Positions 7,605 to 19,933 of a stretch of DNA of 64,000 nucleotides are shown here, one piece after another (within the stretch, counting starts at the first letter, position 1; the number at the start of each line of letters is the position of its first letter). Below the pieces are notes generated by a model that ran no database searches, was not told where the DNA came from, and saw only the letters and a program-made list of their open reading frames with translations. A program made the position numbers and the translations under genes. The stretch lies in the NCBI GenBank assembly GCA_050298595.1, contig JBNKUM010000009.1, positions 1 through 64,000 of the forward strand, given 5' to 3'. This DNA comes from Gammaproteobacteria bacterium. GTDB lineage: Bacteria > Pseudomonadota > Gammaproteobacteria > GCA-001735895.

Positions 7605-8444
7605 TTATTCGTTAATCAGTAACTGTAAGCCTGCTGCTGTATTAGAGATAGGTGCTATCAGGTTACGATAACCTTCGGTGACATTACCCAGCAGGCAACC
7701 GCGCATCGCTAGCCACATATTCAACTCGACGCCCTGAGCTCCGGCAAGTTCTACAATATCTTCGATGCTGTATTTGGTCAGTGCTTCTGGATCAGATACC
7801 ATTTTATCCAGACACATTTCATCAAATTCAGTATTGATCAAACCGGCACGTTCGCCATCCAGCTGATGAGAAAGACCACCGGTACCCATCACGACTACTT
7901 TCTGATCACCACCAAATGATTCAACCGCACGTCCAATCGCCTGACCAAATGCATAGCTACGTGAGAGCTTGGGCATCGGGTGACGTTCACAGTTTATACA
8001 AACAGGGATAACCTTTACCTTGGAATAACTTTGATTTGGGTACATCAGAGTCAGGGGGACGGTTAAGCCATGGTCTACCTTGATTTCCTGACACACGGTT
8101 GGGTCGAAGTCGTTCTCAACCAGCTCATTTACGATATGCCAGGATAATTCGGTTTCGCCCTGAATGGGTGGAATGGGCTTAATACCCCAGCCTTCATCGG
8201 CATTTTCATACTCTGCAGCTGTACCAACAGCAAAGGTTGGTTTCTTGTCGAGGAACATTTCCAGGCCATGGTCATTGTAGAAAATAATCACTATGTCCGG
8301 GTTTACTTCATCAAACCACTTTCTCATGGGGACGTAGCCCTGAAAAAAATCACGCCAGTAAGGGGTGTCTTCCAGGCCTTTGTCCATGGCTACGCCAATA
8401 GCTGGAATATGTGATGAACCGATACCGCCTACGATCTTAGCCAT
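7605..8444 (-). CDS. ligB: Class III extradiol (protocatechuate/gallate 4,5-) dioxygenase beta subunit
   Basis: SSHIPAIG, FYNDHG, VDHG, GTGGLSHQLDGERAG, GAQGVELNMW motifs. Confidence 0.92.
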   Translation of the reverse strand: MAKIVGGIGSSHIPAIGVAMDKGLEDTPYWRDFFQGYVPMRKWFDEVNPDIVIIFYNDHGLEMFLDKKPTFAVGTAAEYENADEGWGIKPIPPIQGETELSWHIVNELVENDFDPTVCQEIKVDHGLTVPLTLMYPNQSYSKVKVIPVCINCERHPMPKLSRSYAFGQAIGRAVESFGGDQKVVVMGTGGLSHQLDGERAGLINTEFDEMCLDKMVSDPEALTKYSIEDIVELAGAQGVELNMWLAMRGCLLGNVTEGYRNLIAPISNTAAGLQLLINE

Positions 8445-8802
8445 TGTTTTTTCCTACCCCCTGGCTCTCCAGGTATGCTTTAAATTCTTCTGTTGTTTGT
8501 CCGGTTTGTAATCCGCCAAAGTCCTGTACGTTAAGTCCCAGAATCGGTCCGATTTTAGCGAGGTAATAAATACTGCCGCCTTCGCGAATCAGGCCCAGCA
8601 CGTCACGGTCACGGACGCATTGCTTTTGAGCTTCATTAAGCTTGAATTTTTCCATGTAGGCTTCTTCATCTGCTACAAAAGCATCACGTCCCTGTTGGGA
8701 ATTGAAGGAGTGGAACATTTTATTTACGGGGTAGCCTTTGGTGGACATAGGTCCATCGAAGAAGGTGGTACCCGGAATGTCGCGCATTTGTTTTACTGGC
8801 AT
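8437..8802 (-). CDS. ligA: 4,5-dioxygenase alpha subunit
   Basis: IPGTT..KGYPVNKM..FVADEEAY..GGSIYYLAKI; overlaps ligB start. Confidence 0.92.
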   Translation of the reverse strand: MPVKQMRDIPGTTFFDGPMSTKGYPVNKMFHSFNSQQGRDAFVADEEAYMEKFKLNEAQKQCVRDRDVLGLIREGGSIYYLAKIGPILGLNVQDFGGLQTGQTTEEFKAYLESQGVGKNNG

Positions 8803-8883
8803 AATGGCTCCGTTGAGTTGTGGGAGATTTGAATTCCCTGATGAATGGCATGGATTATACGATTATAGAAAACGGGAGTAATA

Positions 8884-8940
8884 TGCATAAATTGAATATT
8901 ATCTTGTATATACGTGATATTCATGATGCTAGTTTATGCA
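8884..8940. promoter_or_regulatory. Nested inverted repeat between folD and ligA (operator or RNA hairpin)
   Basis: TGCATAAA (8884)/TTTATGCA (8933) and TGAATAT (8893)/ATATTCA (8917). Confidence 0.4.
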
Positions 8941-8941
8941 A

Positions 8942-9799
8942 TTAGCCCATTGCGAGCTTACGTTCCACTGCTTCCAGTGTGTTCGTCAACAACATGGTGA
9001 TTGTCATAGGGCCAACGCCTCCAGGTACCGGCGTGATCCATTCAGCTACTTCGCGGCAGGATTCATAATCAATATCTCCGCATAGTTTTCCTGAATCATC
9101 TCGGTTGATACCTACATCGATCAATATTGCACCGGGTTTGATCATATCTGCGCTAATCATTTTTGGCCGTCCGATGGCTGCTACCAGTAGATCAGCTCGG
9201 CGCGTATGGAACGTCAGATCGCGAGTTTTCGAGTGACAAAGGGTGACTGTTGCTCCCGCTGCGGTTAACAACTGCGCCATCGGTTTACCGACGATATTAG
9301 AGCGTCCAATAACGACAGCTTCCAGCCCCTGCAGATCGACGCCGGTTTGCTGCAGCATCTTCATCACCCCGTAAGGTGTACAGGGAATAAACCCCGGATT
9401 ACCCTGCGACAGCGCGCCAGCATTCAGCGCATGAAATCCATCGACATCTTTATGTGCAGGAATCGCTGCCAGTATGCGCGCTTCGTCTATGCTGTCGGGC
9501 ACAGGCAGTTGTACCAGAATGCCATCGATATCATCGTCCTCAGCAAGCTGGTTGATGCGTTCCAACAGCTGCTCTGTGCTGGTGTTTGCCGGTAGAATAA
9601 TTTCACGCGACTCGATGCCCACCTCATTACAGGCGTTGATTTTATTGCGCACATAAACCTGCGAGGCAGGATCTTCCCCTACCAGTATCACTACCAGAGT
9701 CGGCTGCCTGTCGACAGCGCTTACTGCCTCGCTGCGTTGTCTGAGTTCGGCACGAATCTGGCTGGCAAGCGCCTTACCATCGATAATTTTTGCACTCAT
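8942..9799 (-). CDS. folD: Methylene-THF dehydrogenase/cyclohydrolase
   Basis: [51 protein letters not shown] overlap with upstream gene. Confidence 0.97.
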
Positions 9800-10989
9800 G
9801 TATTTGCTCCACTGGGCAACCATACTGACAATGGTTTGCGTAATGTCTCTATCTGCTCGAAGGGTGATTCTTCCAGCAGAACTGCTTCAAAAGGCGCTCC
9901 TTCCACCAGTGTCGGATAGGGCAGTTCGAAGTGTTTGCGTGTGGTTGAAGTTGCACTGCGCAGGGTTTTTTCCAGAGAAATTCCTGCTTCTAGATAGCGC
10001 TGAATTTCATCGAATACGGCATAGCCATGTTGTACACCCATGCTACCGGCGTCTGTACCCAGTAGCAGGCGCACACCCATCTCATCGGCTAGTCGCAGAT
10101 GTTCGGCATGCTGATCCAGAATTCTTCGTAGGTTGTCCACTGTTTGAGGTGACCAGCCTACCGCCTCGGGATGCGCCCATTGAAAATGCACCGGGCAAAA
10201 GGTTGGCGTCCAGGCAACGTCACGGTCGCGCATGACTGACAGCGTTTCGCGGTTCATGAAAAAGCCGTGTTCTATGGAACCCACACCCGCGTTGGCCGCG
10301 ATGGCGAGGCCTTTTTCTCCACTGCAATGTGCGAAGGTATTGAGTCCAAGTTTACGTGCACTGTCTACTACCAGGCAGGTGCTATCCAGATCAAATTGAG
10401 GTTCGTCGGTCACTGCACCTGCATCGAAATCTATGATGCCGGTTAAGATGAGTTTGATTTCATCGCTGTCAGTTGCAAGCTGTGCTACCGAGTTCTGAAT
10501 TGCTGCATTATCTACAGCATCCTGAGCCATAAATGCGCCGTAGCGTTTGGGGCGTTTAACGCCCAAACCTGCTGAACGCACTCTTGCCATATCGTTTGCT
10601 GACAGGGCTTCCTGACGAATTTGATGATTGATGCCATGTTTATCACCGGCATCACGTACCAGCGTGACACCACAGCCCAGACTCTGACGTGCACTGCGAC
10701 GTGCAGCTTCTGTGAGTTCTGGCAAGGCCTGTTTCATATGGGCTGAACGCTCGGCACCATCGGTGGGTTTGCCATCCAGAAAAAGGTGCACATGTGCATC
10801 CACCAGTCCGGGTAACAGGAAGCCTCCTTTCACTACAGAACGCTGTTGACTCTTAAAAGACGCGCTGTGATCACCAGATGTAATTGTACTGATAGTGCCC
10901 TGATCAATGGTTATAGTGGTAGCCTGGGGGTAGTGACTTTGTCCATCAAACCAGCCATCCACTACCACTGCGAATGACTCTGAATTCAT
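9796..10989 (-). CDS. Metal-dependent amidohydrolase
   Basis: [32 protein letters not shown] motifs. Confidence 0.9.
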
Positions 10990-18904: not shown

Positions 18905-18930
18905 CGTTAATATCCTCCAGCTTGTTAATA

Positions 18931-18948
18931 TTTATTGGATCCAATAAA
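18931..18948. promoter_or_regulatory. VanR operator 1
   Basis: Perfect palindrome TTTATTGGATCCAATAAA containing ATTGGATCCAAT, the known Caulobacter VanR box. Confidence 0.85.
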
Positions 18949-19109
18949 ACCATAGCTTTAAATTTTAATCAAGTGGCTTGATATCATAATTTCATTCCGG
19001 GGTTCAATTTTGTTTAGAATATAGCGCTTTAAATAGCTTGTTATAACGTAATTGGCTAGTTATTATTACAATAAGTACTGGTATAGACATCAATTTACAT
19101 CTTTTTTAA

Positions 19110-19121
19110 ATTGGATCCAAT
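19110..19121. promoter_or_regulatory. VanR operator 2
   Basis: Second ATTGGATCCAAT in the vanA-vanR divergent region. Confidence 0.85.
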
Positions 19122-19210
19122 ATGACAAAACCTTCAGAAAAAAAGCGGAATAAGTGGTTATTGCAAGGTTATGGTTAAAATGTACAAAATAACGAATATG
19201 AGAAGAAACT

Positions 19211-19933
19211 ATGGCTAAACAGGGACAAAGAGTCTTAAGTACATTACGACAGATGATTCTTTCAGGGGAGTTGTCTGCCGGCGAGCGCCTGGCTGAAATT
19301 CCTACAGCAGAGAGCCTGGGCGTTTCTCGTATGCCGGTTCGTATTGCCTTCCGTACCCTGGAACAGGAAGGCCTGCTGACCAAACAACCGCGTCGCGGTT
19401 ATCGAGTGAGGGAGGTTACTCAGGATGAAATCACAGGTTCGATTGAGGTGAGGGGGGTACTGGAAGGCCTGGCTGCCTGTCAGGCTGCCCAGAAAGGCCT
19501 TTCTGAAGCTCAGCGTGAGGGGTTGCTAGAGTGCCTTGCTGAGGGGGATGGGCTTTTCCTCAAAGGTTTTGTCACCGAAGAGGATCTTGAGGCTTACCAT
19601 GATCTGAATATGCGCTTCCATGCCATTATTATTGAAGCAAGTGCCAACACGGCGATTAGTACTGCTCTGGCGAGAGATGAGCACTTACCCTTTGTCTCGG
19701 CCTCAGCACTGGCTATAGACCGTAATAATCTGGAGCTGGAGTATCGGCGTTTTAATTTTGCCCATATGCAACACCATGCAGCCTTCGATGCCATTGATCG
19801 TGGTCAGGGTGCCAGGGCTGAAGCCATTATGCGTGAGCATGCCAATGCCACACAAAACTATGCTGAATTGTTTACCTCTGCTACGGAAAATAAGCGTAAA
19901 TTTCGTGTGATCGGGGTTCAGGATGTGATGTGA
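19211..19933 (+). CDS. vanR: GntR/FCD repressor VanR
   Basis: GntR HTH (LGVSRMPVR), FCD domain, ARAEAIMREHA; divergent from vanA. Confidence 0.9.
   Translation: MAKQGQRVLSTLRQMILSGELSAGERLAEIPTAESLGVSRMPVRIAFRTLEQEGLLTKQPRRGYRVREVTQDEITGSIEVRGVLEGLAACQAAQKGLSEAQREGLLECLAEGDGLFLKGFVTEEDLEAYHDLNMRFHAIIIEASANTAISTALARDEHLPFVSASALAIDRNNLELEYRRFNFAHMQHHAAFDAIDRGQGARAEAIMREHANATQNYAELFTSATENKRKFRVIGVQDVM

Follow-up and report, generated by a model that had tools for sequence, protein, structure and literature searches.

The 64,000-nucleotide stretch of contig JBNKUM010000009.1 analysed here (the window) comes from a sediment gammaproteobacterium and carries a cluster of eleven co-oriented genes on the minus strand with one divergent regulator, which we read as a putative corrinoid O-demethylase system of oxygen-respiring Proteobacteria. 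The open reading frame (ORF) list, Pfam and NCBIfam recovered all of these genes at the positions that an earlier note on this DNA had given them. In the order of transcription, the run opens with the gene for a VanA-like Rieske O-demethylase oxygenase subunit (17864..18904; Pfam Rieske and VanA_C, 173 bits), followed by those for MetVF, a fused MetV-MetF methylene-tetrahydrofolate (methylene-THF) reductase (16335..17750; Pfam DUF5981 and MTHFR), a corrinoid (cobalamin) carrier protein (15654..16316; Pfam B12-binding, PF02310, and B12-binding_2, PF02607), and MT1, a UroD-superfamily methyltransferase predicted to act from substrate to corrinoid (14407..15657; Pfam URO-D and a match to CdmB). 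Next come a stand-alone protein resembling the reactivation domain of MetH (13740..14402; AF2 model and Foldseek), a RACo-type ATP-dependent reductive activator with an N-terminal [2Fe-2S] domain (11909..13735; Pfam Fer2, RACo_linker, Raco_middle and RACo_C_ter), MT2, a predicted methyl-corrinoid:tetrahydrofolate methyltransferase (10986..11885; Pfam Pterin_bind), and an amidohydrolase that is conserved with them (9796..10989; Pfam Amidohydro_1). The run ends with FolD, methylene-THF dehydrogenase/methenyl-THF cyclohydrolase (8942..9823; NCBIfam NF010786), a LigA-type small subunit of an extradiol dioxygenase (8437..8802; Pfam LigA) and its LigB-type catalytic subunit (7605..8444; NCBIfam NF009901). 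The regulator, a GntR/FCD protein of the VanR group, lies on the plus strand (19211..19933; Pfam GntR and FCD).

By ORF coordinates, the junctions from vanA to ligB measure 113, 18, -4, about 4, 4, 23, -4, -28, 139 and -8 nt in order, so that two long gaps are left, one of 113 nt 5' of metVF (17751-17863) and one of 139 nt 5' of ligA (8803-8941). Metagenome contigs from another run of the same study span both the folD-ligA gap (7355-10074) and the vanA-metVF gap (17749-17966). Directly 3' of ligB, a terminator-like hairpin (7527..7556, minus strand) of 13 pairs, 8 of them G-C, is followed by a T-run and closes the predicted transcription unit; it is the strongest minus-strand hairpin within 6800-20300. 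Hence the single co-oriented run described in the earlier note holds, in gene content as well as in its one-unit layout with one strong terminator. An Rfam scan (E <= 0.1) of 6500-20500 gave no cobalamin riboswitch, its sole match being a sub-threshold ctRNA on the terminator hairpin. Right after the operon terminator begins an ORF of 141 aa on the minus strand (7101-7526), which belongs to no family and has paralogues on C48, C115 and C78 with 41-56% identity.

From its homologies, MT1 appears to be a UroD-superfamily methyltransferase I (MTI) of the O-demethylase/CdmB type. The Pfam URO-D match covers residues 211-414 only. Among solved structures, CdmB of Acetobacterium (9rui) was the best match with an E-value of 5.9e-36, far ahead of the runner-up UroD (3.4e-08), and a profile of the MT1 family was collinear with CdmB over the full length (E 5.2e-46). 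The NCBIfam models for MtaA, MtbA and CmuA gave only 22-48 bits on MT1 against cut-offs of 235-600. According to the available part of PMC13222342, CdmB groups among the O-demethylase MTIs MtvB, OdmB, VdmB and MtoB, with CmuA branching early; its substrates are haloalkanes and not methoxy-aromatics, and it is metal-free with no need for zinc, a metal that is present in the veratrol and vanillate O-demethylases. The proteobacterial MT1 family conserves H273 and C315 without exception and C330 nearly so; CdmB has other residues at the aligned positions, and MT1 may have a metal site. A large protein collection held 1597 MT1 homologues at E <= 0.001, of which the best 120 were 70-100% identical; the named ones among these 120 were all proteobacterial (for example Aromatoleum, Azoarcus, Ramlibacter, Xanthobacteraceae, Thiodiazotropha and Sedimenticola). 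Beyond this family identity falls to 55, 46, 44, 41, 39% and lower, and named relatives outside it, at 35-46% identity, belong to Xanthomonadales, Desulfobacterales and Desulfomonile tiedjei.

The match to CdmB, a chloromethane methyltransferase, gives room for a different substrate, in that the cassette might harvest methyl halides (CH3Cl, CH3Br) in a Cdm/Cmu-like manner and pass the methyl to THF and on to MetVF and FolD, with vanA and ligAB as mere neighbours. The CmuAB pathway is linked to metF, folD and formyl-THF hydrolase, and a cassette with metF and folD mirrors the cmu clusters; besides, contigs 90-99% alike to the locus occur in metagenomes of salt marsh, which is a methyl halide source. 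CdmB as top match nevertheless says little, because it is the only solved member of a clade in which it stands among O-demethylases, and CdmB, which is metal-free unlike the zinc-containing veratrol and vanillate enzymes, has other residues in place of the family's H273, C315 and C330. The window MT1 is also not CmuA-like, because MT1 and the corrinoid protein are encoded by separate genes. With the recurrent neighbours of the cassette (VanAB, P450, LigAB, a p-hydroxycinnamoyl-CoA hydratase/lyase (HCHL) and aromatic-type regulators) and a regulator homologous to a repressor of vanillate demethylation, both described below, we regard methyl halides as a quite improbable substrate and continue with an aryl O-demethylase.

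The other components of the four-component corrinoid system of O-demethylase type that the earlier note had proposed are borne out by their Pfam and NCBIfam domains and, like MT1 with CdmB, by a match of MT2 to solved MeTr chains. The corrinoid protein, 71-86% identical across loci, carries the DxHxxG motif as DLHDIG at residue 106. For MT2 the nearest solved chains were MeTr 2yci (E 2.6e-15) and 4o0q/4o1e (E 5.9e-12); 4O1E is the methyl-THF-bound template for the MTII CdmA in the available text of PMC13222342. RACo matched its Pfam domains with E-values down to 1.4e-74 and scored 364 bits on the AcsV-type NCBIfam model, which is below the cut-off. MetVF combines DUF5981 at residues 48-120 with MTHFR at 174-459 (Pfam), has eight Cys at positions 59-104 and probably acts here as a methyl-THF oxidase. 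The amidohydrolase found its nearest solved chains among prolidase-, carboxypeptidase- and ochratoxinase-type enzymes, and the ESM Atlas returned generic amidohydrolase clusters only. FolD scored 450.8 bits on NF010786 (cut-off 421), and a second copy, 44% identical, is located on C76 of the genome. One salt-marsh run contains contigs in which position 9093 is joined to 9803, and 9262 to 9756, through 20-24 other letters; some relatives have therefore lost most of folD or carry something else in its place.

The gene between RACo and MT1 had been labelled MetH-activation-like, and its predicted structure agrees with this label. Its start is most likely GTG 14402, giving 220 aa, and not TTG 14492. 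The protein has no Pfam family; its AF2 model reached a pLDDT of 90.2, and the top 19 Foldseek matches were all MetH reactivation domains with a probability of 1.00 (1j6r: TMq 0.67, TMt 0.74), while the match to 1j6r by sequence reached an E-value of 0.013 only. Alignment with 30 homologues gave the invariant motifs GDPGL, PxKS and a C-terminal SRCxxC..C (CxxCx5C). A predicted complex of this protein with the corrinoid protein scored 0.56, the best of three controls 0.25, and the runs agreed in at least 98% of contacts with a partner pLDDT of at least 84. Of 157 solved complexes, 116 pass the same mark, as do 2 of 215 mismatched pairs, and scores of at most 0.60 include 18 of the 157 solved complexes and both passing mismatches; moreover, the pass may reflect likeness rather than binding, because MetH structures with cobalamin and reactivation domains have already been solved. 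We therefore take the model as a weak hint that the two proteins may pair.

Such a parts list resembles a disassembled MetH with its pterin, B12 and reactivation domains, and MetVF is reversible in principle. A split methionine synthase would run the flux in reverse, from methylene-THF (derived, for example, from VanA formaldehyde) through MetVF, MT2 and the corrinoid protein to MT1 and on to some methyl acceptor. MT1, however, belongs to the donor-side MTI clade, 69 of the 80 loci compared below have no VanA-like gene nearby, FolD and the catabolic neighbours fit C1 oxidation, and the precedent set by the regulator Atu1419 (below) is catabolic. A reverse flux is thus highly improbable in our view, and transfer from a methyl donor to THF is the direction retained here.

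Related loci were compared in the best 80 of 262 related stretches, with one genome per species from alpha-, beta- and gammaproteobacteria; ORFs in GC-rich loci were called with a GC3-filtered caller, and the MT1 tree of the loci was a quick tree only. A conserved cassette of seven genes emerged, consisting of MetVF, the corrinoid protein, MT1, the MetH-like protein, RACo, MT2 and the amidohydrolase. All seven were present in 28 of the 43 loci with room for the whole cassette, and 17 of these had the order and strand of the window; among the same 43, five lacked the amidohydrolase only and five were solo MT1 paralogues. Over the 80 loci, a MetVF homologue was found in 44, an amidohydrolase homologue in 41 and FolD after the cassette in 8. 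The concern that the combination might be confined to this genome does not apply to the corrinoid cassette, given the 262 related loci in species genomes. As for the exact order of vanA, cassette, folD and ligAB, it recurs in one relative (locus L001), and only there and here. Five of five cassette genomes tested encode a VanA_C protein elsewhere, and all five genomes tested for the COX1 family have it.

Several genomes hold MT1 in more than one copy. Locus L055 (a Burkholderiaceae metagenome-assembled genome, MAG) and L043 (an Ideonella MAG) have two MT1 copies each, L055 with duplicated corrinoid protein and RACo genes as well, within 20 kb, and one Sterolibacterium MAG has five separate MT1 loci (L009, L027, L042, L079 and one further contig). 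These multi-copy loci suggest MT1 paralogue families with differing specificities.

The neighbours of the cassette link it to the catabolism of methoxy-aromatics, as the earlier note had supposed from the window. Among the 80 loci, VanA-like genes occurred in 11, VanB-like genes in 5, P450 genes in 4 and LigAB in 3, and any oxygenase or lig marker was found in 19, or in 11 of the 34 loci with full flanks. By Pfam annotation of the flanks, the cassette lies in L012 between LigC-like, LigI-like and LigAB genes on one side and GntR, VanA and VanB on the other. In L077 it follows GntR, VanA and VanB and precedes DctP, a XylR-type activator and an aldehyde dehydrogenase; in L071 it comes after an aldehyde dehydrogenase, a ferredoxin reductase, a P450, an AraC regulator and LigAB; and in L002 it is convergent with VanB, VanA, Amidohydro_2 and a CoA ligase. 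L050 is the most informative locus, with HCHL and an aldehyde dehydrogenase directly 5' of the cassette. This HCHL scored 395.7 bits on the NCBIfam equivalog (cut-off 276) and is 82% identical to a Ralstonia HCHL, so that the arrangement reads, from gene content, as a ferulate-to-vanillate route ending where a demethylase is needed. Homologues of both genes take the same place directly 5' of the cassette in L049 and L064, and VanA was found in none of L049, L050 and L064. Such neighbourhoods are scattered over several distinct regions of the MT1 quick tree, indicating that the association with aromatics arose or was kept repeatedly.

The same survey has another side, since 61 of the 80 loci show no oxygenase or lig marker in the flanks examined, many of which are short. 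Along with the fact that sequence does not reveal what UroD-type MTIs act on, and with a conserved amidohydrolase that hints at an amide-bonded substrate, this would fit another methyl donor, such as methanethiol or dimethyl sulfide, a methylated amine or an O-methyl sugar, the aromatic genes being parts of general catabolic islands. The low scores of the MtaA, MtbA and CmuA models speak against such donors, as does the lack of a visible HxC zinc-thiol motif in the MT1 sequence; HCHL and aldehyde dehydrogenase just 5' of the cassette point to vanillate, and so does the homology of the regulator to Atu1419. We consider a donor of this kind unlikely and a methoxy-aromatic the better candidate.

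Against solved structures, the regulator matched Atu1419 of Agrobacterium fabrum best (6z74 and four further entries, E 5.4e-34, residues 3-219; runner-up 2e-15). The available part of PMC7797058 confirms these PDB entry codes and describes Atu1419 as the repressor of the THF-dependent vanillate O-demethylase gene atu1420 and the MetF-like atu1418; its target is a 10-bp palindrome with two copies, 190 bp apart, in its own divergent promoter, and 5,10-methylene-THF frees it from DNA. Both features of this class are found in the window, namely homology to the GntR winged helix-turn-helix plus FCD domain and paired palindromes in a divergent promoter. The perfect palindrome ATTGGATCCAAT has exactly two copies in the 64 kb, as shown by an exact-copy search, and both are in the regulator-vanA intergenic region at a spacing of 176 bp, the distal one at 19110..19121 and the other at 18934..18945, 30 bp 5' of the vanA start. 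We designate them predicted operators. In the 35 related loci with enough upstream DNA, the core TTGGATCCAA, with at most one mismatch, was found between -350 and +30 relative to the first cassette gene in 8, compared with 6 sites in all the rest of their DNA (623,833 bases). A GntR homologue lies within the locus in 15 of the 80.

The placement of the site follows the gene order: it stands before vanA where vanA precedes metVF (the window, L001 and L077) and before metVF elsewhere. Of all findings here, this one speaks most strongly for the recruitment of vanA to the cassette's regulon. Judged by its homology, the regulator is the cassette's own and not a classical vanillate-sensing VanR. Its earlier naming as VanR is right as to the group, GntR/FCD proteins of the VanR group, and misses as to function, the nearest relative being a repressor of folate-dependent demethylation rather than a vanillate sensor. 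By analogy with Atu1419, the repressor would probably bind both predicted TTGGATCCAA palindromes, and methylene-THF may be its effector.

VanA has an intact Rieske motif (CPH..CGYH) and an intact iron motif (NxxDxxHx4H), shares 70-71% identity with Rieske genes from Ralstonia, Variovorax and Burkholderia, and has DdmC as its nearest solved structure (E 2.5e-52). In the one record of the Ralstonia solanacearum homologue that was inspected, an oxidoreductase gene adjoins and an HCHL gene is nearby. The cluster in the window contains no vanB, and four VanB queries against the genome gave a best match of 25.5% identity, on C85. The O2-dependent demethylation arm that the earlier note had assigned to VanA is accordingly upheld by the gene and its motifs and left short of a reductase. 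The sole VanB-like sequence in this VanB-less cluster is the N-terminal 2Fe-2S domain of RACo (L001:11958-12158; within 11909-13735 of the window), with 33-35% identity to VanB ferredoxin domains over 60-72 residues. As an electron donor for VanA this [2Fe-2S] domain was raised only as the sole VanB-like match in L001; the idea found no support and was dropped.

LigB scored 452 bits on the subfamily model NF009901 (cut-off 290), and its nearest solved structure is LigB of SYK-6 (1b4u, E 9.5e-78), ahead of gallate dioxygenase (E 1.7e-64). The genome has two LigB paralogues, on C15 (53%) and C47 (46%). The latter belongs to a complete protocatechuate 4,5-cleavage cluster with its own LigAB (L082:5100-18000), made up of DctPQM, PrpF, two Amidohydro_2 proteins, an RraA-like aldolase, LigA, LigB and a LigC-like protein. 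At one end of the C47 cluster lie a TRAP transporter and a P450-ferredoxin-ferredoxin reductase set; because this set is beside the lig pathway, it is a third possible O-demethylation route in the organism. The LigA/LigB pair on C15 (L083:6272-8597), the third in the genome, is 56% and 53% identical to the window pair and stands behind an AraC regulator with no other pathway genes.

The host genome (5.49 Mb, 45% GC, 98.6% complete) has three strong heme-copper oxidase genes, cobQ and one MT1 only, and nothing in it exceeded the cut-offs of the NarG and NapA families. The cluster is 48-53% GC and its flanks 42-45%. The closest relative, G010 (locus L001), has the whole block, regulator to ligB, in collinear order with 77% nucleotide identity and in different flanks; the left one matches C47 of the window genome, and a LigC gene (96% identical) is some 9 kb away from the regulator, which places the cluster near protocatechuate 4,5-cleavage genes. 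Of 40 relatives searched, 13 are other genomes of the genus, and 2 of these have MT1; the other 27 yielded none. The GC contrast, the flanks in G010 and the patchy MT1 together indicate that the block behaves as an accessory island, whose natural neighbour is the lig pathway. Positions 1-25000 contain no tRNA, and a search of the flanks gave no direct or inverted repeats that would mark an insertion. Just past the regulator starts a flagellar cluster (fliL, fliM and further genes; window 20269-21857 onward), so the island is beside motility genes here and beside lig-pathway genes in the relative. In a second study, three salt-marsh metagenome runs contain contigs that are 90-99% alike and extend over 23-27 of 30 bins. 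None of the datasets listed as matching 8450-18449 was of RNA.

Whether the block works as a unit bears on a further possibility, that vanA, the cassette with folD, and ligAB are adjacent yet independent, with vanA a remnant and ligAB transcribed from a promoter of its own within the 139-nt gap and acting on some unrelated catechol. The missing vanB, the gaps before metVF and ligA, an exact arrangement known only here and in L001, and the folD stretch that other letters replace in salt-marsh contigs would all be accounted for in this way. On the other side, collinearity at 77% between different flanks shows that the block travels and persists as one piece; VanA has intact motifs, the operator stands before vanA and not before metVF (its place in loci without vanA), and the sole strong terminator comes after ligB. 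Independence of the three parts is therefore rather unlikely, and we retain a single regulon.

The genome also contains a second, different corrinoid methyl-transfer gene set on C110 (L081:700-13400), near which the contig ends. It comprises a dimethylglycine-dehydrogenase-like protein (DAO and GCV_T), RACo, a pterin methyltransferase, separate MetF and MetV, a PF13769 protein, DUF1638, a corrinoid protein, GFA and formate-THF ligase, and no recognisable MT1 was found in the L081 DNA examined.

Taken together, we consider it reasonably likely that the cluster encodes an O2-independent, corrinoid- and THF-dependent aryl O-demethylase that is co-expressed with VanA and a LigAB paralogue in an O2-respiring host. 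Gene content, folds, conservation, neighbourhoods and the operator motif were computed, and from them we infer the substrate, direction of flux, co-transcription, effector and behaviour towards oxygen. In the proposed mechanism, vanA to ligB would form one transcription unit with a divergent repressor, acquired as an island and centred on the seven-gene cassette that is widespread in Proteobacteria. MT1 would transfer the methyl of an aryl methyl ether (vanillate- or syringate-type acids) to Co(I) of the corrinoid protein, MT2 would pass it on to tetrahydrofolate, and MetVF and FolD would oxidise methyl-THF to formyl-THF. RACo would re-reduce inactivated Co(II) with ATP, and the MetH-reactivation-like protein may aid repair on the corrinoid protein. 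With this relay the cassette would need no O2 and make no formaldehyde. VanA would offer an O2-dependent route to the same kind of product, and the LigAB paralogue would cleave the resulting type of catechol with O2, feeding the full 4,5-cleavage pathway elsewhere in the genome.

Several points weigh against this reading. Homology alone does not fix the substrate of MT1, because CdmB, its only solved relative, takes haloalkanes and not methoxy-aromatics, and the majority of loci are those without an aromatic marker in their partly short flanks. VanA activity is uncertain, because no reductase adjoins and none in the genome exceeds 25.5% identity. LigA, with 159.7 bits on NF009918, falls just under the cut-off of 161, and the gaps of 113 and 139 nt could harbour internal promoters. 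The proposed mechanism leaves the amidohydrolase out of account; it may hydrolyse formyl- or methenyl-folate, or an amide conjugate of the substrate. Finally, Co(I) chemistry in an O2-respiring cell needs protection, which the mechanism presumes.

A wider proposal we hold as possible rather than probable. The cassette may be the missing O2-independent vanillate/syringate O-demethylase of facultative and denitrifying Proteobacteria, in which RACo and the Cys-tailed MetH-type protein would keep cobalt active in O2-respiring cells. The whole regulon, VanA and LigAB included, would then be switched by the C1-folate pool through the Atu1419-like repressor and not by the aromatic substrate, so that scarce O2 would be spent on ring cleavage only and formaldehyde avoided.

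In textbooks, methoxy groups are removed by oxygenases or B12-free folate enzymes in aerobes, and by corrinoid systems in strict anaerobes. The cassette occurs in hundreds of proteobacterial species genomes, often beside VanAB, P450 or LigAB, and its hosts include probably cultivable strains of Thauera, Aromatoleum and Azospirillum, among them Thauera aromatica and Aromatoleum anaerobium. Should the cassette prove to be an O-demethylase, the textbook split between aerobes and anaerobes would not hold for a large part of the bacteria in soil and sediment. The cassette would furthermore give a gene-level handle on the demethylation of lignin monomers at low or zero O2 in marsh sediments, aquifers and wastewater, explain how formaldehyde is avoided and the C1 unit saved, and provide enzymology with an oxygen-exposed corrinoid system that has two repair proteins. 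The regulon would also be a testable case of pathway control via a folate intermediate.

Our search of open-licence PMC papers and bioRxiv found no description of the proteobacterial cassette, and a report in a subscription journal is possible; the available part of PMC10602745, on veratric acid in groundwater, has nothing on a proteobacterial corrinoid system. Two known gene sets were considered and ruled out as equivalents on the parts of their reports at hand. The estrogen methylation system EmtABCD (10.1101/714501) has an EmtA that is MtmB-like and not of the UroD family, and the Type 1 mlp clusters of Kountz and Balskus (PMC10418091) have several SCMT-like Mlps, no THF methyltransferase and obligately anaerobic hosts.

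The four-component corrinoid O-demethylases of anaerobes (Odm/Vdm of Acetobacterium, MtvABC of Moorella, those of Desulfitobacterium, and the archaeal MtoABCD) share with the cassette a UroD-type MT1, a DxHxxG corrinoid protein, a pterin-binding MT2, an activator of the RACE/RACo type and folate as the end point of the methyl. The hosts here, by contrast, are Proteobacteria with heme-copper oxidases (the window genome and five of five other cassette genomes tested). The cassette has, in addition, a conserved MetH-reactivation-like protein, a fused MetVF, an amidohydrolase and a GntR repressor, and it shares an operon with, or lies beside, O2-dependent VanA, P450 and LigAB. CdmBCA of Acetobacterium dehalogenans (9rui), whose CdmB is the solved structure closest to MT1, uses the same three-part methyl relay to THF as far as the available text of PMC13222342 describes it; CdmB is haloalkane-specific and metal-free, whereas the context here is aromatic catabolism. 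CmuAB, in the same source, represents corrinoid methyl transfer to THF in aerobic methylotrophs, from which the cassette differs in having separate MT1 and corrinoid proteins and a RACo.

The window VanA, with its Rieske and VanA_C domains and intact motifs, is 70% identical to a reductase-linked Ralstonia gene and in this respect resembles VanAB; unlike there, no VanB is encoded in the cluster, and vanA is the first gene of a corrinoid operon. With methionine synthase the likeness lies in the fold of the 220-aa protein (reactivation domain, TM0269, 1j6r) and in a cassette that reads as pterin, B12 and reactivation modules made as separate proteins, but the protein here stands alone with an added invariant C-terminal CxxCx5C, and a homocysteine domain is lacking. 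The LigM/DesA, MetF and LigH system of Sphingobium SYK-6 and Atu1418-1420 likewise combine O2-independent, THF-dependent vanillate demethylation, recycling of methyl-THF by MetF and O2-dependent ring cleavage, and Atu1418-1420 additionally has the homologous regulator and paired palindromes at a similar spacing (176 bp here, 190 bp there). The operator sequences differ, TTGGATCCAA here and ATGTATACAT for Atu1419. In LigM/DesA and Atu1420, as given in the available part of PMC7797058, B12-free single proteins use THF directly, whereas the cassette described here would employ a corrinoid relay with ATP-dependent repair.

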